Numbered from the stretch's first letter, positions 33,711-59,606 are shown. The stretch is 64,000 nucleotides of DNA from an uncultured bacterium (GCA_937996235.1 CALKVK010000032.1:242444-306443), one strand, 5' to 3'. Translations and numbers: made by a program. The notes: generated by a model from the sequence alone, not told the origin.

Positions 33711-33718
33711 GGCCGGGC

Positions 33719-37695: not shown

Positions 37696-37781
37696 GGGTG
37701 GTTGCCCGAGCGGCCAATGGGACCAGACTGTAAATCTGGCGGCTTATGCCTGCGGTGGTTCGAATCCACCACCACCCACCA
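37696..37781 (+). tRNA. tRNA-Tyr (anticodon GUA), type II with long variable arm, CCA encoded
   Basis: Acceptor GGGTGGT/ACCACCC, anticodon arm CCAGA-CTGTAAA-TCTGG, long variable arm, T-arm GGTGG-TTCGAAT-CCACC. The 5' part is very similar to E. coli tRNA-Tyr. Confidence 0.85.
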
Positions 37782-40982: not shown

Positions 40983-43298
40983 CTACGACTCGCCACCCAG
41001 CGCGTCAAATCGCACGAAGAACTCCTTGGCGCCCGACGTCACCCGGAAGTTCTCGGTCAGCGCGTCGGGAACGGGAACGAAGATGCGCCGCCTCGTAATG
41101 AGCGTCGTCGTCGGGACCGGACCGCCGCCGGCTCCGCTACCCGCTATCGGCTCTCGAAGTTGGATGTCGTAGTACACGCTCAGCCGACCGGACGTGTCCG
41201 TGAAGATGTAGATGACCCGGTGACCGCCCCAGACGATGCGAGTCGTGTGCGGGATTCTGAAGAAGTCGGAGTACTCCTTCATCGCCCTGTCGGACAGGCC
41301 GAGTAGCATCGAGAAATTGTTCAATTGGGGATAGCTCGCCGCTGTCGTGAGCAGCTTCATGTCCGACGACAGGTCGTCGCGGACGATCGGTGGAGCCGGG
41401 CCGAACTCTCCGCCCGGAGGGGCCTCCTGCTTCACTGGGGACGCCACCACATCGGGGATGACGTTCTCGACCGTTCCTACCTGTCGGCTGGAGACGCTCT
41501 GGCTCTGTCTTCGGACGCTGGTCCGTGCCGCCAGCATGAGTTCCTTGAGCGGCACAGCGCCAGCCAAGTAGTCGCCCAGGACTCCCTCCAGGTCGCCGCG
41601 CTCGTCCGCCTCGTACCGGTAGAGCTCGCGATTCCGTTGGAGGATCTTACGGAGCGCATCGACGCCTTGCCGCGTCGAGGAAGGCACGTGTTGCTGCACC
41701 GATGGGTAGATGTGAACCCGAACAAAGTCCTTGACGACGGGATGAAACACATCATACGCGGTATCGTAGCACTCCAGCAGGGGGCGGATCTGCGGACCTC
41801 CGCGCGAAAGGTAGATGCGAAGCCCGTCCGAGGTCCTCTCGGGGAGCACGGAGACGCCGTGCGAGATGTCTGCCAGCGCGAACTCCGCCTCGGGGATCAG
41901 GTAGTCCTCCCGCAGAACGGACGTGGCGCGGATGAGCACAGCCACCTCCGGGATCGATAGATCCGCGCCGTCGTAGCGACGCACCACCCTCGCGGAGTCC
42001 GGCACCTGTTCAAGCTTGAGCTGTGTTCGCAGGTATTCCAACTGAACGGTTCTGCGGGGGTTCGATTGAGCTGGAAGCACGAGGCAGAGTTCCTCGTTCG
42101 CAAACGTATTCAGGATGGTCGTATCTAGACCCAAGTAGTAGTGCGCCTTCCGAGAACCGATGTGCGAGAGGAGTTCGCTCAGCGGGACGTCAGTGTCCTC
42201 GGGCAGCACGCGCACGGTGATCCGTCCGACCAGATCCGGTCGGCGGTTGGCGTGCAGCCATTGCACGAACGCGGTGTTGCGGTCTGCAAGCTTGTGCGTT
42301 GCCAAGACCTCCGAGGCGGCTCGTTCGGCCAACCGGATGAAGCGCGCGACTTGGTCGATGCTCTCGCGGCTGAGTGCCTCGCGCCCCGCTGTCGGCTGCA
42401 GGAACGAGAGGTTAGCGATGCCGCCGAATTGAAAGGGACCCGATGCCGGGACCGGGGCAAGGCCGAAATTCGACCGGAGACCGTTGACTTGTCCACCGGA
42501 TTGAAGCAGCACAATCTCGCCATCGACCGGCGCGCCGGCAAGTAAGAGGCTGCGACCGTAGACGAGCACCTGTCCGTTGGCATCCACACGGACTTCGAAA
42601 GATCCTGCGCAACTACCATCCGACTCGTCGCGTGTCCCCGCGTCCGCGAACGTGCGATGGCCGATCGGAAGCACCGCCTCTGCGGTGCGCTGACTGATGA
42701 GCACACCGTTCACGGTCACCGGGACGCGCAGCAGATTCACGAACGGTCCGAGGTAGCCAATCGCCTGCTCAGTGGTCAGCAGGTTCTCGGCGTCAAGCGT
42801 TGCAGTCACTGTCGTCCCGGTATCACGGGACCGCGGCAGCCGGTCTAGGACTATGCACCGCTCGCCGATCTTCAAGGTGGCCCGGTCCGCCGCGCTCCGC
42901 AGCATCTCCGCCGCGCCCTCGGTGCGGGTCTCCACCACGAGTCGCGTGCAGACTCCGAAGTTGGCCATCGCGCCGATCCCGAACGTACCGACGACCCCCG
43001 CCTGCCGGGCTGCCTCGGAGTGCTTGCCACTGGAGCCGGCCTTCCAGAAGTGCGTCGACAGCACGTCCTCGGTCATGCCGATGCCGTTGTCCGTGATGGA
43101 GACCGTCCCATCTCGAATCTCGATCTCGATGTGCCCGCCCTCGGCCAGAACGCCATCGCGAGCGAACCGCATCCGGACGGCGTCGTAGGCATTCTGGAGA
43201 TTCTCCCGGAGCATCGCCAGAGGGGAGTCGTAGATCTCACGGGCGAGCACCCTCAACACGCGGGTCGTATCGACCTCGAAGATGAGACCGTCGGTCAT
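40983..43298 (-). CDS. HSP90-like GHKL ATPase-domain protein (HATPase_c_3 / HtpG-like N-domain; the remaining ~550 aa have no obvious domain)
   Basis: 771 aa. The N-terminus EVDTTRVLRVLAREIYDSPLAMLRENLQNAYDA parallels the HtpG N-terminus (..LYSNKEIFLRELISNASDA). Bergerat-fold motifs ITDNGIGMT and GTFGIGAMANFG (HSP90 GxFGxGFYS). Lower GC (~58-60%) than the core. Its start overlaps the stop of the upstream phosphoesterase gene by 4 nt. Confidence 0.7.
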   Translation of the reverse strand: MTDGLIFEVDTTRVLRVLAREIYDSPLAMLRENLQNAYDAVRMRFARDGVLAEGGHIEIEIRDGTVSITDNGIGMTEDVLSTHFWKAGSSGKHSEAARQAGVVGTFGIGAMANFGVCTRLVVETRTEGAAEMLRSAADRATLKIGERCIVLDRLPRSRDTGTTVTATLDAENLLTTEQAIGYLGPFVNLLRVPVTVNGVLISQRTAEAVLPIGHRTFADAGTRDESDGSCAGSFEVRVDANGQVLVYGRSLLLAGAPVDGEIVLLQSGGQVNGLRSNFGLAPVPASGPFQFGGIANLSFLQPTAGREALSRESIDQVARFIRLAERAASEVLATHKLADRNTAFVQWLHANRRPDLVGRITVRVLPEDTDVPLSELLSHIGSRKAHYYLGLDTTILNTFANEELCLVLPAQSNPRRTVQLEYLRTQLKLEQVPDSARVVRRYDGADLSIPEVAVLIRATSVLREDYLIPEAEFALADISHGVSVLPERTSDGLRIYLSRGGPQIRPLLECYDTAYDVFHPVVKDFVRVHIYPSVQQHVPSSTRQGVDALRKILQRNRELYRYEADERGDLEGVLGDYLAGAVPLKELMLAARTSVRRQSQSVSSRQVGTVENVIPDVVASPVKQEAPPGGEFGPAPPIVRDDLSSDMKLLTTAASYPQLNNFSMLLGLSDRAMKEYSDFFRIPHTTRIVWGGHRVIYIFTDTSGRLSVYYDIQLREPIAGSGAGGGPVPTTTLITRRRIFVPVPDALTENFRVTSGAKEFFVRFDALGGES

Positions 43299-44749
43299 CG
43301 CAGGAACCTCTCTCGCACCCGCCGCATCACCTCCCGCACGCTCGCGTCGTTGCTATCGCGAACCTCTGGCGTGTTGAGAAACGACGTCGCGAACTCCCGA
43401 GCGCCACCTTGAAGTATCACGTCTGCAACCACGACAGCCTCGCCAGCATTCTTCGGCGGCCAGAGCTTGGAGAATATCGCTGGACTATCGCCTAGTTCGC
43501 CGAGGGCCTTGAAGAGAAGTGGTCGGGCGAGGGGGTGCTTGCTGATGGCGTCTAGGCATCGTACGGCGTCCTCCCACTGTCCTGCTCCAATCAGTGCCTC
43601 TGCGCGCTCCAGCGCGAGTGCTGCGTCGAGCCGCTCGGGTCGGTGAGCGAGGGGCTCGCAGACGGGGAACTCAACGTGATCGGTGCCAGTGGCCACGATG
43701 TAGCCCGGTCCCCAGAGGGGCATCGCGGGCGGGAGATTCAACATCTGCCGCAGGTGGACGGTTGCGGTCAGAGCGTCCGGATCGATGGTTACAATGTTGT
43801 AGCTGCGAGGCGTACCGGGAGCGAGGTGACGCACGCCAGAGCAGAGTGTGCCAGAACTGACGACGCTGATCTTGCGGCCGCTTGGGCCGAGTCGGAACCG
43901 CTCGTCCACGCATTCCTGGCGGTGTTGGTGGCCATGGAACGCCAGCGACACACCGGAGTCGATCAGGAGTTGGAGGACGCTGGCGTCCATGTAGTCGTTG
44001 CTCGCAGGCGGGCCGAAGAGATTGTGATGCCATGCTGCTGCGGTCATCCACCCCGTTCGATGGGGGCGCCGCAACTCGCGGGTTCCTTGGGCGAGGCAGT
44101 CTGGGTGGATGGCCCCCGCGCGCCTGAGAAGATCGTTCTCGTGGCAGCTGTTGAGAACGAGAATGCAGAAGCGGAGGTCGGGGAAGTCGAAAACGTGGTA
44201 CTGGAGTGATGGGTCAAGTGGATACATCCGCTGCCCCAAGTAGAACCGTTGGTAGAACTCCGCGAACGCCTCGAAGCGCCTCTCATATGCCGCTTCGTTG
44301 GTGACCCTGAGGAAGGACATCTCGGTCCACGACCAGCGGAGTGACGTGTGCGGATACTGGTACTCGGCCGCGAGCCGACGTTTCTCGGCCGCCGTAGCGG
44401 GTGCATCGACCCTCGACATGCTCGCGAACGCAACGGCCGCGTCGACATCGTGGTTCCCTGGGAGGAGTACGATGCGCTCGCGATCTCCCGCGAAGAACGT
44501 GTCTGCGAGCCTCGCGAGGAACTCCTCCGCCTGCCCATACTGTCGGGCGACTTCCTGTGCCGGAGTCGCGGCCGTTGGGTCGGCTCCGAAGATCAGGTCC
44601 CCCGTGACCAAGCACAGGGAGGGTGCAGGAACGCCTTGATTCACATACTTGTTGCGGTCGCGCTCGAGAGACTCGATGAGCCACGTGTTGGGAAGCTCAT
44701 CGTCGTGGTCCCTGTGGAGATCGGATAGGTGGAGGATCGAGAAACTCAT
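43295..44749 (-). CDS. Calcineurin-like metallophosphoesterase with a C-terminal helical extension
   Basis: 485 aa from ATG at 44749. MPE motifs ILHLSDLH (motif I), GDLIF (II), GNHD (III) and GHQH (V). The ~130-aa C-terminus has TPR-like helices. The track ORF begins upstream at 44836. Confidence 0.7.
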   Translation of the reverse strand: MSFSILHLSDLHRDHDDELPNTWLIESLERDRNKYVNQGVPAPSLCLVTGDLIFGADPTAATPAQEVARQYGQAEEFLARLADTFFAGDRERIVLLPGNHDVDAAVAFASMSRVDAPATAAEKRRLAAEYQYPHTSLRWSWTEMSFLRVTNEAAYERRFEAFAEFYQRFYLGQRMYPLDPSLQYHVFDFPDLRFCILVLNSCHENDLLRRAGAIHPDCLAQGTRELRRPHRTGWMTAAAWHHNLFGPPASNDYMDASVLQLLIDSGVSLAFHGHQHRQECVDERFRLGPSGRKISVVSSGTLCSGVRHLAPGTPRSYNIVTIDPDALTATVHLRQMLNLPPAMPLWGPGYIVATGTDHVEFPVCEPLAHRPERLDAALALERAEALIGAGQWEDAVRCLDAISKHPLARPLLFKALGELGDSPAIFSKLWPPKNAGEAVVVADVILQGGAREFATSFLNTPEVRDSNDASVREVMRRVRERFLR

Positions 44750-45261
44750 GGCCGTCCTGTGTCGCGTCGGGCAGCAAGAATACCCGCTTGGGCAGCCGAC
44801 GCGCATCGGGATCTGCGCTCGAATTTCACATCGCATCCGGCGCCCTGCGCCCTTCGCGTCCCGACTCCTGGGAAGTCGCCGCCGGGGTGGCTTGCGCCTG
44901 CGCGTGCATCACCTCCGCTGACGCGGGCCGAGCTCCGGCCACACGGTCTTCCGTTCGGTCCTCCGGACTCTTTGCCGTTGCGCGACGGGGAGACTGGGGC
45001 GGTCGCCGTCAGTCCACGCCGAGGTGATGCGCATGCCGTGTGCGCGAGACTGGGACCCGCTGCGGCTCATCGAGGTTCGACGCCAGTGGGCGCGGACGCG
45101 CTTCGACGTGCCCGGCAGGCGTCCGGCTCCTGCGTCCGGTGCGCGTCGTCTCCTGCGGCGGTTCAGGGGCGCGAGCCAGAAGGAGAAGCCCACGGAAGCT
45201 AGCAGTGGCCAGAACCGCACGGCCGTCGTGCCTGCGGGGACGGTCCACGCCTCGGTGTGCG

Positions 45262-45269: not shown

Positions 45270-46312
45270 CATGCTTCTCCGGTTGACGACCGTAGCCCCC
45301 ATCGGTAGCGTTCCGGCCGCATGCCGAAGCCGGGCTACCCTCGCAACATCGTGGAGTTCACGCGCGACTTCGCCACCGACGAGCAGTGCCTGGCCTACCT
45401 CGTCCGGTGCCGGTGGCCCGACGGGTTCCGCTGCCGGCGGTGCGGCGGCGAGAGGGCGTGGCCCCGACCCGATCGCAAGGCAATGCGGTGCGCGGGCTGC
45501 GATCTGATCACCACCGTCACGGCAGGCACGGCGATGCACCGCAGCCGCCTGCCGCTCAAGTCGTGGCTCTGGGCCGCGTACATGTTGGCGACGGACAAGC
45601 GGGGGCTCTCGGCGCTCGCACTGCAGCGGCAGCTCGGTCTCGGCCGCTACGAGACCGCGTACCAGATGCTCCAGAAGCTGCGCTCGGCGATGGTCGCGCC
45701 GAATCGCACGCGGCTCGCGGGCGTCGTCGAGGTCGACGAGACGCTGATCGGCGCTCCCTTTCGAGGCCGAAAGGAGCGCACGGCGGCCGACAAGGCCGTC
45801 GTCGTGGGCGCGGTCGAGGTGCTCCCGACCAAGAAGGGCACGCAGCCCGGCCGCATCCGGCTGCGCCACGTGCCGACGGCGGCGAAGCCGCGTCTGATGG
45901 CGTTCGTCAAGGAGTGCGTCGAGCCCAAGGCCCTCGTGATCACCGACGGCCACGAGACCTACGACGAACTCGAGAAGCTCGGCTACGAGCACGGGATCGA
46001 ATCCACCGCGACGGGCGAAGCGCAGGAGAACGTCCTGAGGCACCTGCACCTGGTCTTCTCCAACCTCAAGACGTGGCTCGACGGCACGCACCACGGCCGA
46101 GTCTCGAAGAAGCACCTGCAGCAGTACCTCGACGAGTTCACGTTTCGCTTCAACCGGCGGCACACGCCGCAGGCCGCGTTCCAGACGATCCTCGGCATCG
46201 CCGCGAAGACGCCGCCGCGCACGTACGAGCAGGTGTACGCAGGCGAGCCTGCCGAGCCGCTGCCCTTCTAGCACAAGGGGTTGGGGGTGCGGTCGTCAAC
46301 CGGAGAAGCATG
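45270..46312 (+). mobile_element. IS1595-family (ISXO2-like) insertion sequence, intact
   Basis: Perfect 24-bp terminal inverted repeats (left catgcttctccggttgacgaccg; right cggtcgtcaaccggagaagcatg), an 8-bp TSD typical of IS1595, and a single transposase gene. Total 1043 bp. Confidence 0.85.
45321..46271 (+). CDS. IS1595-family transposase (N-terminal zinc ribbon + DDE_Tnp_IS1595)
   Basis: 316 aa. CRRCGGERAW...CAGC zinc ribbon. The DDE domain with the C-terminal HxxxxxH/FRFNRR motif is characteristic of ISXO2-like transposases. Confidence 0.85.
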   Translation: MPKPGYPRNIVEFTRDFATDEQCLAYLVRCRWPDGFRCRRCGGERAWPRPDRKAMRCAGCDLITTVTAGTAMHRSRLPLKSWLWAAYMLATDKRGLSALALQRQLGLGRYETAYQMLQKLRSAMVAPNRTRLAGVVEVDETLIGAPFRGRKERTAADKAVVVGAVEVLPTKKGTQPGRIRLRHVPTAAKPRLMAFVKECVEPKALVITDGHETYDELEKLGYEHGIESTATGEAQENVLRHLHLVFSNLKTWLDGTHHGRVSKKHLQQYLDEFTFRFNRRHTPQAAFQTILGIAAKTPPRTYEQVYAGEPAEPLPF

Positions 46313-46320: not shown

Positions 46321-46753
46321 CGCGTCGTGAACGGCGCTTCGTTCACGTCGTACGCCGTGCGCCTCAAGCGGTGGTATAGGGGCTACGACGGGACGTCGAA
46401 GTCCGCGAACTCATTCGGCGTGGGCGATGAAGCCGACGCGCTCCCGTGGACAGTGTGCGGCTCTCGTTCCGTCGACACGGATGCGGTCTGCAGCGATCCT
46501 CACGCCGCCTGGCTCGCCGCTCGCTCCGAGAGGGCGCCCCGGGTCTGGCTCCACCTCCGAGGTGCGGGAACCCGTGGCGCAGGGGATAGGTCGACGTGAA
46601 GGGAGCGAGCATACGGCTCGGATAACGGGACGTTGACAAGATGCGACGCGGTTGCGTCTCAGCGCAGGGGTAACGCGGGACGCCGGGCCATGAGCCGCGC
46701 AGGTGCGTGAGCCGTCCGAGTGCGCTAGTCACGGTGCAGTCGTTGCTTGCGAG

Positions 46754-49700
46754 TCAGCGTGCCTCTGCCTCCAGCGCCGTGATCTCGTCGGCGTCGTGAC
46801 CTGCTGCGCGCAGCGCGGCGATGCGGTCGGCGAGGCGAAGGCGGGCGGCTGGGTCGGGCTCGACGACGGTGGCGTTGAACAGCGCCTTGGCCTCGTTCAG
46901 CGCGACCTCGTCGGTGTCGTGGTCCGCTGCTCGCAACGCGGCGACGCGGTCGGCCAAGCGCAGGCACGCGGCGGGATCGGGCTCGACGACGGTGGCGTTG
47001 AACAGCGCCTTCGCCTCCTCGAGCGCGATCTCGTCGGTGTCGTGGCCTGCCGCTCGCAGCGCGGCGACGCGGTCGGCGAGGCGCAGGCGGGCGGCTGGGT
47101 CGGGCTCGTTGGCGGTGACGTTGATGAGCGCCTTCGCCTCCTGGAGCGCGATCTCGTCAGTGTCGTGACCTGCTGCGCGCAGCGCGGCGATGCGGTCGGC
47201 GAGGCGCAGACACGCGGCTCGGTCGGGCTCGACTACGGTGGCGTTGAACAGCGCCGTCGCTTCCTCGAGCGCGAGCTCGTCGGTGTCGTGGCCTGCTGCT
47301 CGCAGCACGGCGATGCGGTCGGCGAGGCGCAGGCACGCGGCGGGGTCGGGCTCGTTGGCGGTGGCGTTGAACAGCGCCTTGGCCTCGTTCAGCGCGACCT
47401 CGTCGGTGTCGTGGTCCGCTGCCCGCAGTGCGGCGATGCGGTCGGCGAGGCGAAGGCGGGCGGCTGGGTCGGGCTCGACGACGGTGGCGTTGAACAGCGC
47501 CTTGGCCTCGTTCAGCGCGACCTCGTCGGTGTCGTGGTCCGCTGCCCGCAGTGCGGCGATGCGGTCGGCGAGGCGAAGGCGGGCGGCTGGGTCGGGCTCG
47601 CCGACGGTGGCGTTGAACAACGCCTTCGCCTCGCGGAGCGCGATCTCGTCAGTGTCGCGACCTGCTGCCCGCAGCGCGGCGATGCGGTCGGTGAGGCGCA
47701 GACACGCGGCAGGGTCGGGCTCGACTACGGTGGCGTTGAACAGCGCCTTGGCCTCGTTTAGCGCGACCTCGTCGGTGTCGTGGCCTGCTGCGCGCAGCGC
47801 GGCGATGCGGTCCGCGAGGCGCACGCGGACGGCCGGGTCGGGCTCGACGACGGTGGCGTTGTTCAGGGCGTTCGCCTCCTGGAGCGCGACCTCGTCGGTG
47901 TCGTGGTCCGCTGCCCGCAGTGCGGCGATGCGGTCGGCGAGGCGAAGGCGGGCGGCTGGGTCGGGCTCGCCGACGGTGGCGTTGAACAACGCCTTCGCCT
48001 CCTCGAGCGCGATCTCTTCCGTGTCGTGGCCTGCTGCCCGCAGCGCGGCGATGCGGTCCGCGAGGCGCACGCGGACGGCCGGGTCGGGCTCGACGACGGT
48101 GGCGTTGTTCAGGGCGTTCGCCTCCTGGAGCGCGACCTCGTCGGTGTCGTGGTCCGCTGCCCGCAGTGCGGCGATGCGGTCGGCGAGGCGAAGGCGGGCG
48201 GCTGGGTCGGGCTCGCCGACGGTGGCGTTGAACAACGCCTTCGCCTCCTCGAGCGCGATCTCTTCCGTGTCGTGGCCTGCTGCCCGCAGCGCGGCGATGC
48301 GGTCGGCGAGGCGCATGCGGGCGGCCGGGTCGGGCTCGACGATCGTGGTGAAGCGTAGAGCCGCAGCGTGCCGGAGCGCACCGACCTGAGCATCGACATG
48401 CCGCCCGCAGTCCCGGACATGGTCGGCGAGTTCCTCGCGCAGGCTCTCCGCGCGAGAGCGGAGGGGCTCCTCGGTGACGAGGTGCGTGATCGACCAGATG
48501 AGCGGCAGCGCCGACAGCGCGAACGGCGCAAGGGCCCTGATCGGATCGTCGTGGAAGCGACCCTGCCACGAGAGCCGCGTGCTGGCGACGCCCGGCGGAT
48601 GGAGGGACTCGCGGACGATGTGGACGCGTAGGCCGTCCGGCCGCATCACGAAGAGCCCAGGCTCACCTTCGTTCGCACGTTCGTGGGCGAGGAAGCGCAC
48701 TTCACTCAGTTGCCACGCTACGTCGCGCAGATCCGGAGGAAGTGCCTCCGGCTCCGCGTGTCCCACATACGCCAGGATGCGGAGCACGCGGAGGCGTTGG
48801 CCGTCGAGGTCGGCGCCCGCTGCCGACCTCGCAACCCGCTCGATCGCTCTCGAGTACGAATTCGCCAGGAGCTCAGCAGAAGTCTGTGGGATCGGCACGC
48901 CGGGCTGTAGGGCCAGCGCAAGACCGCGCAACGCAGCCTCGAAGTGTCCCTCGGAGGCCAGGGCCACGGCAGCCAACGCGTCGTTGCGCCGCAGCGCAGC
49001 GGCGGCGCGAGGACTGGCGGCGGCGATGCGTCGCAGATACTCCGCAACGGAGCCGGGATCATGTACCGGCTCGAACGCGAACTCGGAGTACCGCTCGCGC
49101 TGATGCCGACGCTCTCCGAGCACGTCGTGTGTCGGCCAGGTGGTCACCAGGCATCGCAGCGCGAAGTCGCCTTCCCAAGTCCACGGCAGGTCGAGAAACG
49201 CGCCCATGCGCTCAGGCTGCGAGCCCTTGTAGTCGTCCCACACGACGAGGCAGCGGAAAGACGCGCCGGAGTGCCCGCGTGGCCCGCTCGCTCGGAGCCG
49301 GTGGAGAGACGCCATCGCGGCGTCGGTGAACGAGTTGTCGCCTGCCGTGACGAACAGGACGTGCCACCCCTCGCCGCGTGCCAGGTCCGCGGCGGCGAGC
49401 GCGAACCGCGTCTTGCCGGTGCCGGGCGGGCCGCGCCACACGTGCACGCGGATCTTGTCCTCCGCGAGCAGCCCTCGGACCTTCTCGAGTTCTCCGTGGC
49501 GCCCGAGGAACGTCTCCTGCAGCGCGCTCGCTGTCGATGCCTCGGCCCACAGATCGTCGAGTCCGTAGTCGTACGTGCGAGCGATGCTCCAGTAGCGACT
49601 GGCGAACGTGGCGAGCGGCTCCAGGCGCGAACCGTAGAGCCCCCGCAGCGTCTCGGCGATCTCCAGGAGGCGCTCGTCGATGCGCGCGAGCCGGCCCACC

Positions 49701-50545
49701 AGTTCCGCATGGTGCTCCGAGAGCTGATCGCGGAGTTGGGCAACCGACTCCTCGATCGACAACTGCAGCTGGTGCTCTGCTGCCCAGATCTGACGGATCT
49801 GCGAGTCGTTCAACTCTCCCAGCAGCGCCTTGACCCGATCGGTATCCGCCTCGTGACCTGCGCGAAGAGCCTGGAGCGTGGCGAGAACGGCCCCCTGGAA
49901 GCGCAGGGTGAGCGCCGCATAAGCACGGCCTTCTGCGGGGCCCTCGCCGTTCACGTCGCGCTTCAGCAACTCGACGACCGCGCTCTGGAACGGCTCGGTC
50001 AACCGGTGCGCGGCCGCCGTGATGGACGCGTCGTCGTGCGGCGTGCCGCACGCTTGCAGCAGGGTGGCGACGGTCTCCCCCAACTCGGGTGCTGCGCTGC
50101 GGGCGTTGGGCCCGTGCAGCCCCGTCAGCATCCCGAGGATCTCGCCGTCAGCGACGACCGGAAGCTCCGTCGGCTGCTCCGATCTCAGTTCCCTCTCGAC
50201 CGCGGCACGGAGGTCCTCGAGCAGCTTCCGTCGCGCCGTGCTTCCTGAGCGGGTGCGCCCCAGATCTCGTTCGGCCGCCGTGTCGAGTGCGTGCAGCGCG
50301 AGCACCTCGAGGTCGTGGTTGCGGAGGAGAGCCCCAGCTGTCGGCCGCGCGCGCTGCTTGCGCCCCTCGATCAGCTTCGTGAACTGGTCGACGCCGATCT
50401 CGATGCCGGCCGCACCGAGGGCCGCGAGGAGGATCTGCGGCATCGGCCCCGCGAGCGTCGCGAGGGCAGGCGCGACGAACGAGAGGCTGGAAACGGCCGC
50501 GAGCACAGCCACCTTCGACACTGCGGCGGGGGTGTTGCCGGGCAC
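46754..50545 (-). CDS. Large STAND/NLR-like P-loop NTPase: N-terminal hydrophobic segment, helical region, AAA+/NACHT-like NTPase, C-terminal array of ~13 near-identical 41-aa repeats
   Basis: 1263 aa. The N-terminus MPGNTPAAVSKVAVLAAVSSLSFVAPALATLAGPMPQILLAALGAAGIEIGV is a predicted TM segment. Walker A is VWRGPPGTGKTRFAL (~aa 395) and Walker B is FRCLVVWDDYKG. The repeats EPDPAARLRLADRIAALRAA(G/D)HDTDEVAL(N/Q)EAKALFNATVV are encoded by 123-bp DNA units. Confidence 0.7.
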   Translation of the reverse strand: MPGNTPAAVSKVAVLAAVSSLSFVAPALATLAGPMPQILLAALGAAGIEIGVDQFTKLIEGRKQRARPTAGALLRNHDLEVLALHALDTAAERDLGRTRSGSTARRKLLEDLRAAVERELRSEQPTELPVVADGEILGMLTGLHGPNARSAAPELGETVATLLQACGTPHDDASITAAAHRLTEPFQSAVVELLKRDVNGEGPAEGRAYAALTLRFQGAVLATLQALRAGHEADTDRVKALLGELNDSQIRQIWAAEHQLQLSIEESVAQLRDQLSEHHAELVGRLARIDERLLEIAETLRGLYGSRLEPLATFASRYWSIARTYDYGLDDLWAEASTASALQETFLGRHGELEKVRGLLAEDKIRVHVWRGPPGTGKTRFALAAADLARGEGWHVLFVTAGDNSFTDAAMASLHRLRASGPRGHSGASFRCLVVWDDYKGSQPERMGAFLDLPWTWEGDFALRCLVTTWPTHDVLGERRHQRERYSEFAFEPVHDPGSVAEYLRRIAAASPRAAAALRRNDALAAVALASEGHFEAALRGLALALQPGVPIPQTSAELLANSYSRAIERVARSAAGADLDGQRLRVLRILAYVGHAEPEALPPDLRDVAWQLSEVRFLAHERANEGEPGLFVMRPDGLRVHIVRESLHPPGVASTRLSWQGRFHDDPIRALAPFALSALPLIWSITHLVTEEPLRSRAESLREELADHVRDCGRHVDAQVGALRHAAALRFTTIVEPDPAARMRLADRIAALRAAGHDTEEIALEEAKALFNATVGEPDPAARLRLADRIAALRAADHDTDEVALQEANALNNATVVEPDPAVRVRLADRIAALRAAGHDTEEIALEEAKALFNATVGEPDPAARLRLADRIAALRAADHDTDEVALQEANALNNATVVEPDPAVRVRLADRIAALRAAGHDTDEVALNEAKALFNATVVEPDPAACLRLTDRIAALRAAGRDTDEIALREAKALFNATVGEPDPAARLRLADRIAALRAADHDTDEVALNEAKALFNATVVEPDPAARLRLADRIAALRAADHDTDEVALNEAKALFNATANEPDPAACLRLADRIAVLRAAGHDTDELALEEATALFNATVVEPDRAACLRLADRIAALRAAGHDTDEIALQEAKALINVTANEPDPAARLRLADRVAALRAAGHDTDEIALEEAKALFNATVVEPDPAACLRLADRVAALRAADHDTDEVALNEAKALFNATVVEPDPAARLRLADRIAALRAAGHDADEITALEAEAR
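46757..48340 (-). repeat. Tandem array of ~13 x 123-bp near-identical coding repeats (41-aa units), including a perfect 246-bp two-unit tandem duplication (~47785-48030 and ~48031-48276)
   Basis: The period was measured between recurring ctcgtcggtgtcgtg motifs (46786, 46909, 47032...). The +strand ORFs across this region (46703..47761, 47190..48389) are artefacts of the repeat. Confidence 0.85.
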
Positions 50546-51196: not shown

Positions 51197-54169
51197 CTAC
51201 CCGGCGTCTCGGAGCCTCCGGTAGATCTCCTCCAGCATCCGCTTCCGGAACCACTCCAGCTTCGCCGGGTCGCTGAACATCGCGTCGATGAAGCGGCCGT
51301 GCTCGGCGTGGCGGTCGACGAGGGCGTCGTCGAGGGCCGGGTCGAGCACGTAGCGGAAGTTCTCCTTCGTGTTCGCCGCGGCGGCCTGCTGGATCCTCTC
51401 GTCGGCGACGAGTTGCTCGCGGACGCCGTCGATCAGGTCCTGGGCATCGAAGTCCGTGCCGAACGCCTGGTTCAGGAGGTCGATCAGGCGCGACAGGCGC
51501 TCCTTCGTCGGCTCCTTCGCGGCGGTGCCCGTCTCCGTGGGCCCAGGGAGCTCCTGCATGCCCTCCGCGACGAGGCCGATGGTTCCCTCCGCGATCTTCT
51601 CCAAGCGGTAGTAGCGGAGGCCCACGTCCTCGCCGAGGTCGATCGGCGGCGCGCTCTCGCCCTTCGCCGGCAGCTTCCGGAGCAGGTTGCGGCCGAAGGC
51701 GTACCGCTTCTCGAGGTCGATGTCGCTGAACGGGACGATCTGGCTCAGGAACCCGTAGAGGTTCACGAACGCCTGCAGCTTGCCGCGGAAGTCGTCCTGG
51801 TCCTCCGGCTCGCGGTCGCGGAAGCGATCGACCGCCGTGTCGAGCGCCGCGTTCATCAGGCCGTTGTCCTGCGGCGTCGGGTTCGCGCGGAAGAACGCCC
51901 TCGCGAACGACTCCACCTCGCTCGCGTAGTAGACCTGCGCGGCGTCCAGCTCCGCCTCGAGCTCGTGCAGGCGCTGCGGGTCGACCGGCCCCTCCGTGGT
52001 CGTGCCCTCGTAGTACGGCTGGAAGCTCTGGAGGATCTCCTCGCGCTCGTTCACGAAGTCGAGCACGAAGGTCTGCGTCTTGCCGGGGAAGGTCCGGTTG
52101 AGGCGCGAGAGCGTCTGCACCGCCTGGATGCCCGAGAGGCGCTTGTCCACGTACATGGCGGTCAGCAACGGCTGGTCGAAGCCGGTCTGGTACTTGTCCG
52201 CGACGATCAAGAGGTTCCACTCCGGGCCGGCGAAGGCCTGCGGGAGCTCCTTCTCGCGGATACCCCGGTTCATGCCCGGCTCGGTGTAGGTCGTCATGGG
52301 GGCGTCCGGGTCGCGGACCTCCCCGGAGAACGCCACGAGCGCTCCGATGTCCCCGTAGCCCTTCTCGGCGATGTAGCGGTCGAACGCCTGCTTGTAGCGA
52401 ACGGCGTGGAGGCGTGAGCCGGTCACGACCATCGCCTTCGCCCGCCCGTCGAGCTTCCCCCGCACGCAGGCCCGGAAGTGCTCGACGATGACCTCGGTCT
52501 TCTGCGCCACCTCGACCGGGTGGAACGACACGAACCGCGCCAGCGCGACAGCCGCCTTCCGCTTGTCGAGCTCGGGGTCGTCGGCGACCTCCTTGACGAG
52601 GCGGAAGTACCGCTTGTAGGTCGTGTAGCCGACGAGCACGTCGAGGATGAAGCCCTCGTCAATCGCCTGACGCATGGAGTAGAGGTGGAAGGGGATCGGC
52701 CGGCCGCCGGCATCGCGGTGGCCGAAGAGCTCGAGCGTCTTGAACTTCGGCGTCGCTGTGAACGCGAAGAACGAGAGGTTCCGCTGCGGGCCCTTCGCGA
52801 GCGCGGCCCGGACCACGGCTTGGTCGGCGGGCTCGAGATCCCCGCCGCCTTCCTCCTCGAGCCGCTCTTCGACGCTCGACGCACCCAGCACGGTCTTCAG
52901 GCTGGCCGCCATCTCGCCGCTCTGGCTCGAGTGCGCCTCGTCCACGATCACCGCGTACCGGCGCGACGGCATCTCGCCGAGCTTCTCGGCCACGAACCCG
53001 AACTTGTGGATGGTCGTCACGATGATCGGGACGCCGTCCGAGAGCGCCCGCGCGAGCTGCGCGGAGTCGTGCTCGATCTTCTCGACCACCCCCGTCCGGT
53101 GGTCGAACTGGAAGATCGTGTCCTGCAGCTGGCGATCGAGGACGACCCGGTCGGTCACGACGACCACGCCCTCGTACACGCGCTGATCGTCGGCGTCGTG
53201 GAGCGACGAGAGGCGGTGCGCTAGCCACGCGATGGAGTTCGACTTCCCGGACCCGGCGGAGTGCTGGACCAGGTAGTTGGTCCCGGCGCCGTTCACGCGT
53301 GCGTCCGCGACGAGCCGCCGGACGCAGTCGAGCTGGTGGTGGCGGGGGAAGATCACGGCCTCGCGGGTGTGCGTGCGGCCGTCCGCCGTCGTCTCGCCGA
53401 CGCGTTCGAGATGGATGAACGACGCCAGGATGTCGAGCAGGCTCTCCCGCTCGAGCACCTGCTCCCAGAGGTACGACGTGCGGTGCTTCCCCTCGACGGG
53501 CGGGTTCCCCGCGGCGGTGCCGTGCCCCCGGTTGAACGGCAGGAAGCGCGTGCGCTCGCGCTGGAGGCGGGTCGTCATCTCGACCTCGTCCGAGCCGACC
53601 GCGAAGTGGACGAGCGCGCGCTCTTTGAAGCGGAAGAGCGGGGCGTCGGGGTCCCGCCGCCGGTACTGCGCGACGGCGTCCTTCGCCGTCTGGCACGTCA
53701 GCGCGTTCTTCAGCTCCATCGTGACGACGGGGATGCCGTTCACGCAGAGGACGATGTCGATCGAGTTCTCCGGCGCCTTCGGGTCGAAGTGGATCTGCCG
53801 CACGACGGCGACGCGGTTCTTCGCGTAGTCCTCAAGGGTCTCCGGGTTCAGCCCGAACGCGGGCTTGAAGGTCGCGACGCGCAGGTGCTGCCCGTGGACC
53901 TTGAAGCCCTGACGGAGGACGTGGAGGACGCCGTGCGCCTCGGCCGTCTTTCCAAACGCATCGAGGACGGTGCTGCCGAGGCGTCCACCGAGGATCGCGC
54001 CGAGCTTCTCCCACCGCTCGGGCTGGATCTCCGCGATGTACCCGAGGAGGTCGTCGGCGATGAGCCCGCGGGCCCTGTCGTAGGCCGCGGGATCGCGCCG
54101 GACGTAGCCATGGGCGAGGAGGTGCTCCTCGATCAGGGTCTCGAACGCGGCTTCGCTGGTCGCCTTCAC
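51197..54169 (-). CDS. hsdR: Type I restriction enzyme R subunit HsdR
   Basis: 990 aa. N-terminal PD-(D/E)xK region, SF2 helicase motifs (QHSAGSGKSNSIAW, DEAHSSQ), HsdR C-terminal domain. GTG start overlapping the upstream gene. Confidence 0.9.
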   Translation of the reverse strand: MKATSEAAFETLIEEHLLAHGYVRRDPAAYDRARGLIADDLLGYIAEIQPERWEKLGAILGGRLGSTVLDAFGKTAEAHGVLHVLRQGFKVHGQHLRVATFKPAFGLNPETLEDYAKNRVAVVRQIHFDPKAPENSIDIVLCVNGIPVVTMELKNALTCQTAKDAVAQYRRRDPDAPLFRFKERALVHFAVGSDEVEMTTRLQRERTRFLPFNRGHGTAAGNPPVEGKHRTSYLWEQVLERESLLDILASFIHLERVGETTADGRTHTREAVIFPRHHQLDCVRRLVADARVNGAGTNYLVQHSAGSGKSNSIAWLAHRLSSLHDADDQRVYEGVVVVTDRVVLDRQLQDTIFQFDHRTGVVEKIEHDSAQLARALSDGVPIIVTTIHKFGFVAEKLGEMPSRRYAVIVDEAHSSQSGEMAASLKTVLGASSVEERLEEEGGGDLEPADQAVVRAALAKGPQRNLSFFAFTATPKFKTLELFGHRDAGGRPIPFHLYSMRQAIDEGFILDVLVGYTTYKRYFRLVKEVADDPELDKRKAAVALARFVSFHPVEVAQKTEVIVEHFRACVRGKLDGRAKAMVVTGSRLHAVRYKQAFDRYIAEKGYGDIGALVAFSGEVRDPDAPMTTYTEPGMNRGIREKELPQAFAGPEWNLLIVADKYQTGFDQPLLTAMYVDKRLSGIQAVQTLSRLNRTFPGKTQTFVLDFVNEREEILQSFQPYYEGTTTEGPVDPQRLHELEAELDAAQVYYASEVESFARAFFRANPTPQDNGLMNAALDTAVDRFRDREPEDQDDFRGKLQAFVNLYGFLSQIVPFSDIDLEKRYAFGRNLLRKLPAKGESAPPIDLGEDVGLRYYRLEKIAEGTIGLVAEGMQELPGPTETGTAAKEPTKERLSRLIDLLNQAFGTDFDAQDLIDGVREQLVADERIQQAAAANTKENFRYVLDPALDDALVDRHAEHGRFIDAMFSDPAKLEWFRKRMLEEIYRRLRDAG

Positions 54170-55104
54170 GCGGTCTCCTCCGCGAGTGCATGCAGATGCG
54201 GACCGATCGCGGCAACGAGCCGCTCCATCGCGTCCACCATGCCCTCAATCACCGCCGGCCATCGCGCCTCCTCCTCGAGTCCGCCCTTCCCAATCCAGTA
54301 GCGGATCTGGCAGGCCTGACCGCCTTGCGTCCACTCGAGCTCGCCACCGAACGCGCGCTCGATTGCGCCGGACTCGCTGCGGAGAGCGTTCAGGATGCGA
54401 CGGTTGCGCTCGGCGTCCATGGTCTCGATGTAGAGCTCGACGCGAGCGTCGTTCTTCCTAGCTGCGTACACGTAGTGCAGGCCCTTCAGCCCGGCCGGAG
54501 CGCCAACCCAGTACCCGTGCCCGGTCGAAGCCGATGCGTGCAGATCCGAGCGACGGTTCGCCAGTTCGAGAAGTTGCGACCAGAAGGACGACCGCGTCCG
54601 ATCGAGTTGCGTGATCTCCTTCTTCGTCGCGCCAGCCGCACGGATCTCTGGGCTCGGTCCGACGATGAGCGTGAACAGCGCGGCCGGTGCAGAGTCGTCG
54701 ATGCGCACGGCCTCGACCTGCACGAGGTAGAAGGAGCAGGAGGTCTCCTGGTTCAGCCACGAGACCGCGTTGACGTGCTCCGGTCGCGCCTTCGAGACGA
54801 CCCAGACGGCGACCTCAACGTCCAGCGTCGCGAGGTAGGTCAGAACCTGCCCGAGATGTCTGTGATCCGACGGTTCGAGCTGGTTCTCGATGACGACGTT
54901 GCGGCCGCGGTCGTCCTGCGCGACCAGGTCGACGGAGAAGTCGCCGACCGGCTGCTCGCGCTCCGCCGACACGAGGTCGATGTCAAGAGCCTCGCTCAGC
55001 ACGTCAACGTGATTCTGCAGCCACGCCGTGAAGTCTGCGGCCTCGTGCTTCCACACGTCTCGAAGCGGGACCCGCGTCAGCCGACCGATGCTCATGCTGG
55101 ACAC
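54166..55104 (-). CDS. Hypothetical PD-(D/E)xK-like nuclease-fold protein (DUF4268-like) inserted between hsdS and hsdR
   Basis: 312 aa. Candidate nuclease motif VGDFSVDLVAQDDRGRNVVIENQLE. It overlaps hsdS by 13 nt and hsdR by 4 nt, so it is translationally coupled within the R-M operon. Confidence 0.55.
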   Translation of the reverse strand: MSSMSIGRLTRVPLRDVWKHEAADFTAWLQNHVDVLSEALDIDLVSAEREQPVGDFSVDLVAQDDRGRNVVIENQLEPSDHRHLGQVLTYLATLDVEVAVWVVSKARPEHVNAVSWLNQETSCSFYLVQVEAVRIDDSAPAALFTLIVGPSPEIRAAGATKKEITQLDRTRSSFWSQLLELANRRSDLHASASTGHGYWVGAPAGLKGLHYVYAARKNDARVELYIETMDAERNRRILNALRSESGAIERAFGGELEWTQGGQACQIRYWIGKGGLEEEARWPAVIEGMVDAMERLVAAIGPHLHALAEETA

Positions 55105-58510: not shown

Positions 58511-58833
58511 GGCACGGCGAGGGGCGGGACGGCGACCACGAAGCGCGCCCGTCGGATCCGCCAGTCGTCGGGTGGCGCAGCCCGCCCGAGCCGCGGATGG
58601 CGGCGACGCGCGATCCACGCACACAGCCAGCAACGCGCCCTTCAGCGCCGGCTGTGTGGGGCCGTCGATGCGGCCCGATGTTCGGCGCCGCTCGCCGGCT
58701 CCGAGGTGCTACCTCGCCAGGCCACCCACAAGGTCCGATACGCCGTGCCTCGATGTGCTCGCCGCTCCGAACGCTGCGCTCCCCCGAACTCCGGTACCCA
58801 GGAGGCAGGGCCGTCAGATAGCCTCGAGCGGCG

Positions 58834-59409: not shown

Positions 59410-59606
59410 TGGGACATGCAGCATCGCTGCAGCATGCGTTCCGCAGCGTACTTGGCGCGCGCCGTACCGACCCTGTGGGCGGTGATGGATCTGCGAGCGT
59501 CCGCGCTGGATGCCTCCTCCCAACGCGACCGCGGCTGCCGGTGGACTCGTCCGGCAACCAGCGGGCGGCTGCTGGCGATGCGCGGCCTGACACTCCGAGG
59601 TGACGG

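Follow-up and report, generated by a model that had tools for sequence, protein, structure and literature searches.

A Candidate NLR-Like STAND Protein with a Rapidly Changing Array of 41-Residue Repeats in an Uncultured Bacterium

Results

Gene, Layout and Family

The window (a 64,000-nt stretch of DNA from an uncultured bacterium, GCA_937996235.1 CALKVK010000032.1:242444-306443) was found to contain the minus-strand gene for a 1263-aa protein with an NTPase and a repeat array that a preliminary description had reported (Table 1). The ORF starts with GTG, and this start is supported because homologue N-termini align with that of the query there (MPNENQVSFARMKVLF.. compared to MPGNTPAAVSKVAVL..). 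The proposed tripartite layout was confirmed by homologue alignments, in which the N-terminal hairpin module, STAND-type NTPase and repeat array were shown to be common to the family. The product is predicted to be a rare bacterial relative of NOD-like immune receptors without prior characterisation, and literature searches returned no description of the family.

Table 1. Features of the gene and its product (positions counted from the first nucleotide of the window).
Feature	Nucleotides	Residues	Strand	Evidence or content
Whole gene, STAND/NLR-like protein	46754..50545 (stop codon included)	1263 aa	-	ORF list; GC3 0.86; full-length homologues P0007, P0010-P0028
Gly/Ala-rich hydrophobic hairpin	50390..50512	12-52	-	Hydropathy scan of query and 20 homologues; alignment; AF2
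Helical/coiled-coil domain	49541..50389	53-335	-	Alignments A1/A2; AF2 all-helical, pLDDT about 65-80
P-loop nucleotide-binding domain	49061..49540	336-495	-	Pre-P-loop helix, Walker A, Walker B, strand-4 motif
Pre-P-loop helix GR..EL, LGRHGELEKVRGLL		347-360	-	Family alignment
Walker A GPPGTGKT	49409-49432	372-379	-	Motif
Walker B LVVWDDY	49229-49249	433-439	-	Motif
Strand-4 motif LVTTWP	49133-49150		-	Motif
Helical domain and winged-helix-like region	48404..49060	496-714	-	Degenerate G-x-P position; WH-type motif
C-terminal repeat array: half N-cap, 12 full 41-aa units, one truncated unit	46757..48403	715-1263	-	TRF; unit table; AF2
Most recent duplication, 2.08 exact copies of a 246-bp two-unit block	47793..48304		-	266-bp exact run at offset 246

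The family was shown to be very rare, with 31 representatives among 1.84 billion proteins, and the closest relatives, about 30% identical, were found in Acidobacteriota MAGs from genome collections (Solibacteraceae, Terriglobia, Ca. Sulfopaludibacter). The same repeat type, with periods of 40-44 residues, was present in P0002-P0012, P0022, P0027 and P0028. It was joined to other NTPase clades and other N-termini in P0003, P0004 and P0006, and to nSTAND1/AAA_16 in P0008. Such swapping of repeats, NTPases and N-termini appears to represent the modular shuffling typical of immune STANDs.

NTPase Domain

The P-loop NTPase had been placed at about aa 390-520; both of its signatures, GPPGTGKT and an hhhhDD Walker B, were present, although at aa 372-379 and 433-439. 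Compared to the features that define the STAND superfamily (Leipe, Koonin & Aravind 2004), a Walker A of the form GxxxxGK[ST] was found to follow an Arg-bearing helix (GR..El), with R349, G375, G377 and K378 invariant in 22 family members and W436 and D437 of Walker B at least 90% conserved in the family alignment. The C-terminal superstructure-forming repeats and variable N-terminal effector or adaptor of STANDs were also recognised, as a 13-unit solenoid and as N-termini that differ between repeat-sharing clades. The STAND assignment of the preliminary description thus held for the pre-P-loop helix and the Walker motifs, but the G-x-P position is degenerate (SEGHFEAAL, aa 531-539, where the query reads GHF), and the strand-4 motif (LVTTWP in the query, VKRvITSWP in the family), which resembles the NACHT motif hhhTSRP and in outline the STAND consensus hhh[TS][ST]R, has a near-invariant Trp (W470) in place of the Arg that contacts the gamma-phosphate. 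Motifs shared across the alignment were GR..EL, G.PG.GKSRL, hhLLWDDY, VKRvITSWP, G[NQH]P and LD.FR.HVVRR, and a WH-type motif (FVMRPDGLRVHIVRESL) was located at aa 632-648. The start of strand 4 carries a conserved KR, a possible substitute for the Arg of that strand.

When family members were scanned individually against Pfam, AAA_16 was matched by 17 of 22 (best 2.2e-8), ATPase_2 by 13, nSTAND_NTPase5 by six (1.4e-9), nSTAND3 by five (1e-6), NPHP3_N by five and nSTAND6 by three; neither NACHT nor NB-ARC was matched by the query or any member. The query alone fell short of the Pfam cut-offs (AAA_16, E 0.017; nSTAND5, E 0.025-0.059), its sub-threshold matches also including AAA_30 and IstB_IS21, and it gave no significant specific match in PADLOC, Pfam or NCBIfam. 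In the PDB sequence-profile search only IstB/DnaA/RFC P-loops were matched (E 1e-5 to 1e-4). The Foldseek ranking did not distinguish STAND from classical AAA+ folds, since NLRP9, RPP1 and Avs5 score no better than the top matches ClpC, ORC and RFC. AF2 model 1 had a mean pLDDT of 61, with values below 50 over aa 1-75 and most of aa 600-680.

Repeat Array

Tandem Repeats Finder detected a 123-bp period with 12.7 copies and 86% matches (46784-48342), the full units corresponding to aa 737-1228, the truncated last unit to aa 1229-1263 and the half-unit N-cap to about aa 715-736. The array had been described as some 13 units nearly identical in DNA; this number was recovered, and some units are 100% identical, but unit-to-unit DNA identity ranges from 74 to 100% (74-98% for most pairs), so the description does not apply to all of them. 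A perfect two-unit tandem duplication was confirmed, and its extent of 2.08 copies follows from the longest exact run at that offset (Table 1).

The array was modelled by AF2 as a two-helix alpha-solenoid (pLDDT 96, pTM 0.89) with two helices of 15-17 residues per unit, and Foldseek related it to TPR and ARM solenoids with probabilities of 0.9-1.0 and TM-scores all at or below 0.5. On the level of sequence, Pfam models for TPR, Arm and Sel1 did not match the arrays even at E up to 10, and HEAT was matched by one array only at 0.2. With the repeat profile, the designed armadillo-repeat protein 4rzp was matched at the borderline (E 6e-6; hhalign probability 49%), as was importin-alpha (E 0.12). 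E-values are inflated by repeat-on-repeat matching, as a perfect consensus array matches unrelated Pfam families at 1e-14. Apart from these matches, PDB sequence searches with the repeat were empty, and hhalign showed no similarity to CTPR and designed-ARM consensus sequences. Across profile, PDB sequence and structure searches, no Pfam or PDB repeat family was thus convincingly matched. The term "undescribed repeat class" is therefore justified for the sequence family, which is absent from Pfam and PDB, but overstated for the fold, which is predicted to be a standard alpha-solenoid built from two-helix units, as in TPR, ARM and HEAT proteins.

Diversification of the Repeats

In eight independent arrays, the variable unit positions were 30, 33 and 36 (i, i+3 and i+6 on helix 2), 40/41 and 7/8, and the near-fixed ones A28, A32, A34, L35, N37 and A38. 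Positions 30, 33 and 36 form a hypervariable helix face adjoining the invariant Asn. In the window gene, pN/pS was 2.45 at codons 7, 30, 33, 36 and 41 compared to 0.20 at the remainder, a contrast that is inflated by the partial choice of these codons from the query itself; the same positions vary in the seven other arrays. Unit number also differed among close relatives (7.9, 8.9 and 14.9), based on metagenome assemblies in which repeat collapse could explain part of the differences. The protein at locus L004 showed 100% identity with P0010 over 702 non-repeat residues and differed by one perfect 40-aa unit, the largest number was found in the L045 orthologue (85% identical), and P0002 and P0007 are 79.5% identical, yet contain at least 8 and 2.5 units, respectively. 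The view that the repeat domain is actively evolving was therefore upheld, as unit number is not invariant among relatives, hypervariable positions are shared and pN/pS exceeds 1 at these positions.

N-Terminal Hairpin and Helical Domain

The hydrophobic N-terminus of about 50 aa noted earlier is present and conserved in the family, but consists of two Gly/Ala-rich segments (aa 12-30 and 34-52) joined by a short Pro-containing turn, and is of no more than borderline hydrophobicity for spanning a membrane. Kyte-Doolittle 19-residue maxima in the query were 1.95 and 1.41, and Hessa dG values, taken as simple sums, were +2.7 and +8.3 kcal/mol; the 20 homologues scanned showed comparable hydropathy and positive summed dG, mostly +2 to +8 kcal/mol. 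With its positive summed dG, the hairpin is more likely to be a latent membrane segment than a constitutive one. It is kept in most full-length members of the alignment ("AGGvLAP" ... "GxGxLGxxGSW"). AF2 placed helices at aa 8-32 and 38-48 with pLDDT below 50. A membrane-disrupting effector at the N-terminus, as suggested previously, was not borne out by a hairpin that is conserved yet marginally hydrophobic and that lies where the model is unreliable. The adjoining helical/coiled-coil domain contains the family motifs LLRNHDL (aa 73-79) and LK(E/R)D..G.GP..GR.(W/Y)AAL (aa 194-212) and gave no specific match in Pfam, NCBIfam or PADLOC.

Genomic Context

The gene adjoins two tRNA genes in an island with IS21 and IS1595, hsdR being its upstream neighbour and the IS1595 transposase its downstream one. 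Also in the island are a type I R-M operon, with a PDC-S11/DUF4268 gene among its members, and a pair formed by a GHKL ATPase and a metallophosphoesterase. The L004 homologue was found between a PDC-S24 Fic gene (1.5e-200), IetA/IetS, an OLD/AriA-like ATPase and DndB. These were the only clear defence islands among about seven family loci; those of L003, L005, L001, L042 and P0009 lie among housekeeping or unrelated genes. No PADLOC-DB 2.0 family matched the query at E up to 1. Given this and the small number of islands, the anti-phage role put forward in the preliminary description is only putative. A small partner ORF with a matching motif, as in BASS/Bell two-gene systems, was not found beside the window gene.

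Discussion

Most likely, the product senses infection or conflict as a single protein, since the repeat surface residues and copy number change quickly. Specifically, we put at roughly 55% the probability that it is a stand-alone NLR-like (STAND-superfamily) protein combining sensor and executioner and representing a rare, uncharacterised clade; an anti-phage role and a membrane effector would be part of this reading. The sensor would be the C-terminal solenoid of 41-aa units, a regular two-helix structure, one face of which carries the invariant Asn and its hypervariable flanks, and this face may bind a ligand of foreign origin, perhaps a peptide in extended form or the surface of a repetitive protein. 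If homology with Avs, Apaf-1 and plant NLRs is a guide, binding of the ligand would free the P-loop domain from autoinhibition and lead to NTP exchange or binding and oligomerisation. Oligomerisation may then cluster the conserved N-terminal helical domain, and the Gly/Ala-rich hairpin, too weak as a constitutive anchor, could insert into and perturb the cytoplasmic membrane, with the infected cell being arrested or killed. This effector step is drawn by analogy from plant CC-NLR resistosomes, fungal HeLo and bacterial Bell domains, MLKL and TM-type Avs effectors. Unequal recombination among the near-identical 123-bp units would diversify the array itself, with positive selection acting on the binding-face codons. 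Most STANDs in defence sense through TPR-like helical repeats, and some Avs homologues carry TM effectors (PMC13581612). Repeats of high internal identity are recognised as characteristic of NLRs in fungi and bacteria (bioRxiv 10.1101/2020.01.06.895854).

A non-immune, membrane-tethered STAND protein for signalling or scaffolding, for example in developmental or envelope signalling of large-genome bacteria with complex lifestyles, is considered unlikely. The hairpin would then be a permanent anchor, for which its positive summed dG is poor; the ATPase would act as a regulatory switch, and the repeats would offer a binding platform to an endogenous partner. Many STAND clades outside defence are found mixed in with defence clades (PMC13581612), housekeeping genes surround several of the family loci, no enzymatic effector was recognised with Pfam, NCBIfam or PADLOC, and the scaffold codons are under strong purifying selection, all of which agree with such a protein. 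An endogenous partner, however, leaves unexplained the hypervariable binding-face positions with pN/pS above 1, the strain-level gain and loss of units and the patchy, rare, singleton-like distribution, and defence islands surround both the window gene and its homologue at L004.

It is rather improbable that the same mechanism serves another trigger, namely other bacteria or kin, as in allorecognition or inter-strain incompatibility (cf. fungal HET/NWD NLRs). Highly internally conserved, positively selected and reshuffled repeats are the signature of fungal allorecognition NLRs, and the Acidobacteriota origin of the nearest genome-collection relatives is in line with this, but neither a polymorphic partner locus nor a secretion or contact system was found beside any member, and the systems next to the gene in the defence islands act against phages or MGEs.

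There is similarly little reason to regard the very recent expansion as an assembly artefact, in which the gene would be real and the 246-bp duplication and unit count due to mis-assembly of near-identical repeats. The window proteins checked were all singletons from one contig, which makes a MAG the probable source, and tandem 123-bp units with up to 100% identity are difficult for short-read assembly. Against this, the frame is intact throughout the array, which ends after helix 1 of the last unit as in homologues, units were gained and lost independently in other family members, and most unit pairs differ enough to anchor reads. It is regarded as very improbable that the protein is not STAND/NLR-like but an ordinary mobile-element AAA+ ATPase (Cdc6/ORC/DnaA/IstB type) whose repetitive tail is unrelated, a reading in line with the PDB profile and sub-threshold Pfam matches, the head of the Foldseek list and the IS elements on the flanks of the gene.

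Comparison with Known Systems

The favoured reading of an NLR-like sensor and executioner was compared with several systems. With membrane-targeting executioners (the plant CC domain of the ZAR1 resistosome, fungal HeLo/HELL, bacterial Bell and the MLKL 4HB) the comparison is by analogy only: no sequence or profile similarity to the query was found, its domain is larger (about 335 aa compared to 100-150 aa) with two hydrophobic segments and a long coiled coil, the acidic residue is missing in the query itself, and its model is poor at aa 1-75 for fold comparison. KAP/Tmn-type NTPases are a different P-loop family. Like the query, these transmembrane proteins combine a P-loop NTPase with hydrophobic segments, and membrane-level anti-phage action has been proposed for them (PMC13001434), but in the query the hairpin lies at the very N-terminus and a sensor made of repeats is present, and the query had no match in PADLOC, whose models cover defence NTPases.

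Avs (AVAST) antiviral STAND NTPases were also considered, especially Avs5/SAMD9-type and TM-effector homologues (Gao et al. 2022; Lee et al. 2026, PMC13581612). The query matched no PADLOC model for Avs or another defence system, its sensor is a regular near-identical array compared to the irregular TPR-like domain of Avs shaped around one phage protein, its family has Trp for the strand-4 Arg, and its 335-aa N-terminal domain is without a described counterpart.

High internal identity is attributed to the TPR-like 42PR repeats (Marold et al. 2015, Structure 23:2055, as cited in PMC5642895). The query shares with 42PR, ARM and HEAT repeats a period of 40-44 residues, a solenoid of two-helix hairpins and very high internal identity. 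By Foldseek E-value, the array came closest to an assembly of designed helical repeats and to superhelices of TPR; by TM-score, it came closest to ARM proteins, namely Vac8 (0.45/0.50), beta-catenin-type proteins (about 0.37) and the LRRK2 N-terminus (about 0.4-0.48). Its "AL.NAT" motif can be aligned with "AL.NIA" of ARM. Compared to TPR, Arm, HEAT and Sel1, the repeat is without a Pfam match; because of this, of TM-scores not above 0.5 and of inflated repeat-on-repeat E-values, ARM membership is not established.

The last comparison was with fungal and bacterial HIC NLRs with WD40, TPR or ANK repeats (Paoletti 2007; Dyrka 2014; bioRxiv 10.1101/2020.01.06.895854). The query NOD is neither a recognisable NACHT nor NB-ARC, its repeat is a helical hairpin of 40-44 residues that matches no TPR, ANK or WD profile, and, compared to NLR/amyloid systems (Dyrka et al. 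2020), no amyloid (BASS) motif or Bell-domain partner gene adjoins it. As in HIC NLRs, however, units are 80-90% identical within the protein, a few surface positions vary under positive selection, and unit number is reshuffled.

Gene structure and N-terminal region

The gene of interest is read, with a probability of roughly 55%, as encoding an NLR-like sensor that works as a single protein: a foreign ligand would be bound on the hypervariable face of its repeat solenoid, NTP binding would allow the STAND module to oligomerise, and the clustered N-terminal domains would present their conserved hairpin, which is marginally hydrophobic, to the membrane. Attack by this hairpin would leave the cell arrested or killed. 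The analysis shows the architecture and how it is kept through the family, a STAND-like NOD, the solenoid fold, the variation pattern with its turnover of units, and a defence island around two of the loci; ligand binding, oligomerisation, membrane attack and the immune role are what we infer.

The ORF is a genuine gene, with a GC3 of 0.86 compared to an overall GC of 0.71 and with a start matched by an equivalent start in the aligned full-length homologues. Neither a sigma-70 promoter consensus nor an intrinsic terminator consensus was found for it, and antisense ORFs over the array (e.g., 46703-47761 and 47190-48389, both plus strand) were regarded as high-GC artefacts.

Two Gly/Ala-rich hydrophobic segments were found at the N-terminus (aa 12-30 and aa 34-52), with Kyte-Doolittle maxima of 1.95 and 1.41 and positive summed Hessa free energies (+2.7 and +8.3 kcal/mol). 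The hydrophobic N-terminus of the preliminary description was thus retained, but as a membrane span it is just marginal. A signal peptide (K11, hydrophobic core, ALA-T) was rejected, since a cytosolic NTPase and the second hydrophobic segment follow and homologues are without the AxA site. An HD-phosphohydrolase reading of 'RNHDL' was also rejected, because His-Asp is unconserved across the wider family.

Distribution of the family

An exhaustive HMMER search with aa 1-737 against 1.84 billion representative proteins gave 31 proteins at E <= 1e-3, six of which, the query included, reached E <= 1e-30; the best relatives showed about 30-34% identity to the query. The family was recovered solely by this search and by a repeat-region search; word-indexed searches (aa 1-737; profile of family alignment A2) returned the query alone from a candidate list that saturates, probably owing to the Ala-rich character of the sequence. 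Full-length relatives were found at seven loci in a scan of 185,579 species genomes and the JGI metagenomes: five from genome collections, all Acidobacteriota MAGs (Solibacteraceae, Terriglobia and Ca. Sulfopaludibacter), and two metagenome contigs without assigned taxon (L045 and L046). A search of the JGI metagenomes found no relative of this gene close enough for strain-level comparison, and no plasmid match was obtained by DNA or by protein. Exact look-ups of the gene product and of the hsdR product found no recorded protein, and the window proteins tested, the aroC product among them, are singletons. Pfam, NCBIfam and PADLOC gave no specific match for the query, just sub-threshold P-loop matches and spurious ones, with no hit to any PADLOC defence model.

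The family alignment showed a common architecture: a hydrophobic N-terminal hairpin ('AGGvLAP' ... 'GxGxLGxxGSW'), an 'LLRNHDL' helix, a strongly conserved 'K(E/R)DatGrGP..GRg(W/Y)AAL' motif, a long coiled coil followed by 'F..YW', a pre-P-loop helix ('GR..EL..F..FL'), Walker A ('G.PG.GKSRL') and Walker B ('hLLhWDDY'), the motifs 'VKRvITSWP', 'aeG[NQH]P..vL' and 'y.L..D.FR.HVVRR', and C-terminal units of 40-44 residues with the signature 'AL.NATv.EPDP..r..LA.RI..L', in arrays of from 2.5 to 15 units. New here are the clade itself, which is rare and unassigned, and its N-terminal domain of 335 aa, which has no earlier description.

Genomic context

The window locus looks like a variable island beside tRNA genes, in which aroC is followed by the tRNAs, IS21, a GHKL/metallophosphoesterase pair, IS1595, the gene of interest and a type I R-M operon (see table). 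A spacer of 650 bp separates the gene of interest from the operon directly upstream, which is complete and co-oriented (hsdM-hsdS-DUF4268-hsdR); the presence within it, between hsdS and hsdR, of a gene matching the PADLOC candidate defence system PDC-S11 is worth recording.

Features of the window
Feature	Position	Strand	Remark
ORF with DUF444 domain	31514-34798	+	1094 aa
aroC	36311-37471		island edge
tRNA-Thr(TGT) and tRNA-Tyr(GTA)	37548-37781
IS21 ORF, probably istA	38345-39622
IS21 IstB	39619-40392
GHKL ATPase and metallophosphoesterase genes	40983-44836	-	overlapping
IS1595	45321-46271	+	ISEba1-like
Gene of interest	46754-50545	-	GTG start; 1263 aa
Repeat array (Tandem Repeats Finder)	46784-48342		period 123 bp; 12.7 copies; 86% matches
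Two-unit block	47793-48304		2.08 perfect copies
Type I R-M operon	51197-58633	-
hsdR	51197-54169	-
DUF4268 gene	54166-55104	-	PDC-S11, E 6e-113
hsdS	55092-56438	-
hsdM	56435-58633	-
ORF	58642-59643	-	no Pfam hit
ORF	59607-60515	+	no Pfam hit
AAA_25 gene	60954-63176	+	740 aa

Downstream of the gene of interest, 480 bp away, sits the IS1595 copy, whose 90% cluster includes ISEba1-like copies from Planctomycetota MAGs. The GHKL gene product (771 aa; GHKL/HATPase_c_3) has as partner a calcineurin-like metallophosphoesterase of 513 aa, with a tail at the C-terminus that appeared TPR-like by eye. The pair may be an uncharacterised two-gene defence module, with weak PADLOC similarity to REase_II-type GHKL and to the candidate system PDC-S60. 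The AAA_25 (RecA/RepA-like) gene and the two ORFs beside it may form the replication/integration module of an integrated element on the far side of the island. In the DUF444 ORF the C-terminal 190 residues match DUF444 (YeaH-like; E 1e-80), and the long N-terminal extension may be a high-GC ORF-calling artefact or a fusion. A BASS amyloid pair was rejected, as no partner gene adjoins the gene of interest.

A defence-island context was found at two loci, the window and L004, where the homologue is flanked by a Fic gene of the candidate system PDC-S24 (E 1.5e-200), IetA/IetS, an OLD/AriA-like ATPase and DndB. The context of the other loci was uninformative or housekeeping: Ser/Thr kinase and UvrD (L003), ribosomal protein S1, NamZ and a WD40 protein (L005), a radical SAM/SPASM gene (L001) and metabolic genes (L042 and the locus of homologue P0009); L043 looks like a conjugative element. 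The L005 WD40 protein (12134-15649, plus strand; Ca. Solibacter MAG) has 1171 aa and about two beta-propellers, adjoins a divergent family member, and may be another NLR-like sensor. No conserved neighbour gene was found across the loci examined, so the protein most likely acts alone.

The housekeeping neighbours would also suit a non-immune, membrane-tethered STAND scaffold; set beside the two defence islands, this reading was judged unlikely. The immune sensor remains the preferred reading; should it be wrong, the protein would just add to the uncharacterised STAND ATPases.

The repeat array

At protein level the array opens with half a unit as a cap (about aa 715-736), continues through 12 complete units of 41 aa (aa 737-1228) and closes with a truncated one (aa 1229-1263), which stops after helix 1 exactly as the arrays of homologues do; the C-terminus is therefore intact and not truncated by the adjacent IS1595. 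The units had been described as near-identical, which holds for units 2 and 4 (identical) and for the pairs 1/3 and 7/8 (98% DNA identity each), but pairwise identities ranged from 74 to 100% at DNA level. An exact run of 266 bp at an offset of 246 confirmed the perfect 246-bp two-unit tandem duplication noted earlier.

An AF2 model of aa 701-1263 (pLDDT 96, pTM 0.89) predicted a regular solenoid with two helices of 15-17 residues per unit. Foldseek returned generic alpha-solenoids only, with best E-values (1e-4 to 1e-2) for the designed helical-repeat assembly 8ga7 and the TPR superhelices of Ctr9, Ski3, APC/C, SPY/OGT and NatA, and best TM-scores (0.36-0.50) for ARM-type proteins (Vac8, beta-catenin-like, LRRK2 N-terminus). 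A PDB sequence search with the array gave no match, nor did the Pfam TPR, Arm, HEAT and Sel1 models, even with a polished consensus array. Hence, of the proposed undescribed repeat class, the sequence family is indeed unclassified, but the predicted fold is an ordinary TPR/ARM/HEAT-like solenoid.

A three-unit-block profile gave one borderline match, to the designed armadillo-repeat protein 4rzp (E 6e-6; hhalign probability 49%, 28% identity), and weak importin-alpha matches (E 0.12), with 'AL.NAT' aligned opposite ARM 'AL.NIA'; repeat-on-repeat matches are demonstrably inflated, as a perfect consensus array also "matches" the unrelated families LAL_C2 (1.5e-14) and PriCT_1 (9e-13). Consensus designed-ARM and CTPR sequences did not match the repeat. 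A relationship to ARM repeats is a lead and not an established result. Matches of the query protein to Pfam HTH_39 (PF14090, also precomputed for P0001; 46757-48334), CW_7 and 'aroma-sacti' were artefacts of small partial matches summed over the units.

Units within an array showed 68-90% protein identity in most members (49% in the degenerate array of P0012), whereas the non-repeat parts of different members were just 27-60% identical, which points to concerted evolution or independent expansions. Nearly all within-array variation in eight independent arrays (periods 40-44) fell at the same positions: 30, 33 and 36 on helix 2 (i, i+3, i+6), 40/41 in the following turn, and 7/8; A28, A32, A34, L35, N37 and A38 were almost invariant. 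The variable residues 30/33/36 thus lie on one helical face with the invariant Asn. In armadillo proteins a Trp/Asn ladder binds peptide, and the face predicted here may be analogous. Among units of the window gene pN/pS was 2.45 at codons 7, 30, 33, 36 and 41, 0.20 at the other 36 and 0.37 overall, the codon choice being partly post hoc in this gene and the positions corroborated by the other seven arrays. Hypervariable positions would also be expected of an allorecognition or inter-bacterial conflict sensor, a reading considered improbable next to the two defence islands; an immune sensor is preferred.

Array copy number changes fast in the family. The L004 protein (Ca. Sulfopaludibacter, 1058 aa) and its homologue P0010 (1018 aa) showed 100% identity over 702 non-repeat residues and differed by exactly one perfect 40-aa unit, the 85% identical L045 orthologue had 14.9 units, and the 79.5% identical homologues P0002 and P0007 had at least 8 and 2.5 units, respectively, all in metagenome assemblies in which some repeat collapse is possible. 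For the recent expansion alone, an assembly artefact would draw on that possibility and was given little credence beside the unit-number changes in other members. The suggestions that the repeat domain is actively evolving and that unit number would vary among relatives were thus both borne out.

The repeat type also occurs joined to NTPases of other clades and to different N-termini. For homologues P0003, P0004 and P0006 the alignment to the family begins at the pre-P-loop helix and leaves out the N-terminal domain (hhalign 99.8%, largely repeat-driven), and P0008 combines a different N-terminus with nSTAND1/AAA_16 and family-type repeats. On the metagenome contig L042 (6593-9233, plus strand) a member of the distant clade with these repeats was called as two genes 4 bp apart, a 467-aa AAA_16 protein and the 410-aa P0005. 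Either a frameshift/sequencing error has divided it, or NTPase and sensor really are separate genes there. Sensors shared across several STAND clades have been reported for defence STANDs (PMC13581612).

The NTPase

The P-loop NTPase of the preliminary description was recovered somewhat upstream of its proposed position, with Walker A (GPPGTGKT) at aa 372-379 and Walker B (LVVWDDY) at aa 433-439. In a per-member Pfam scan AAA_16 was matched in 17 of 22 members (best 2e-8), ATPase_2 in 13, nSTAND_NTPase5 in six (best 1.4e-9), nSTAND3 in five (best 1e-6), NPHP3_N in five and nSTAND6 in three. These matches, the STAND-like motif set and the tripartite architecture favour a STAND assignment. The strand-4 sensor-1 position is Arg in NACHT and NB-ARC STANDs (hhhTSR; 'TSR/TTR'); in the family it is a near-invariant Trp (family motif 'ITSWP', alignment A1; W470 within aa 466-471 of the query), which is new here, and the G-x-P position of the query reads GHF. 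Because of these deviations the proposed STAND-type NTPase was kept at superfamily level: by its motifs the query is filed in an unassigned clade, with no placement in NACHT, NB-ARC or an Avs family. A conserved Lys-Arg was observed at the start of the strand carrying the Trp. A KAP/Tmn-type NTPase was rejected on the lack of a PADLOC hit and on its different topology.

A classical AAA+ of a mobile element was considered hardly tenable against the STAND matches and motifs, even though PDB sequence-profile searches matched solely the Walker A-to-Walker B stretch of IstB, DnaA and RFC, and a Foldseek search with an AF2 model of mediocre quality (mean pLDDT 61; core aa 340-560 about 70-90) did not separate classical AAA+ from NLRs.

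Comparison with known systems

Should the immune-sensor model hold, the gene encodes a compact immune receptor that needs no second gene and comes from soil lineages with little study so far. It would join three features usually discussed for eukaryotic NLRs: an N-terminal membrane attacker on the same chain as the NOD, a sensor built of repeats with high internal conservation, and diversification by repeat reshuffling. More tentatively, the family might be a bacterial CC-NLR/HeLo-NLR-type all-in-one death receptor, in which an N-terminal domain of a kind not described before would cause a membrane lesion with its latent Gly/Ala-rich hairpin on NOD oligomerisation and an armadillo-like asparagine-ladder solenoid would read an extended peptide, two residues per unit, re-programmed by unit gain and loss and by positive selection at three helix positions; this is possible rather than probable, and would make the family a natural modular peptide-binding immune receptor.

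The family adds a clade with Trp for the sensor-1 Arg to the STAND catalogue, and with an invariant scaffold and 3-4 hypervariable positions per unit it is a clean natural data set for how repeat sensors get re-tuned. The regular solenoid of 41-residue units, for which the prediction confidence is very high, may also appeal to protein engineers. New here is an unclassified 40-44-residue repeat with clear hypervariable-face and copy-number dynamics in bacteria. Tripartite STAND sensors of NLR-like type are already well known as a kind, along with effectors of TM type and repeats of high internal conservation, and to a specialist this is a good candidate and no surprise. The array turnover shown by the family is the behaviour described for highly internally conserved repeats in fungal and bacterial NLRs (bioRxiv 10.1101/2020.01.06.895854).
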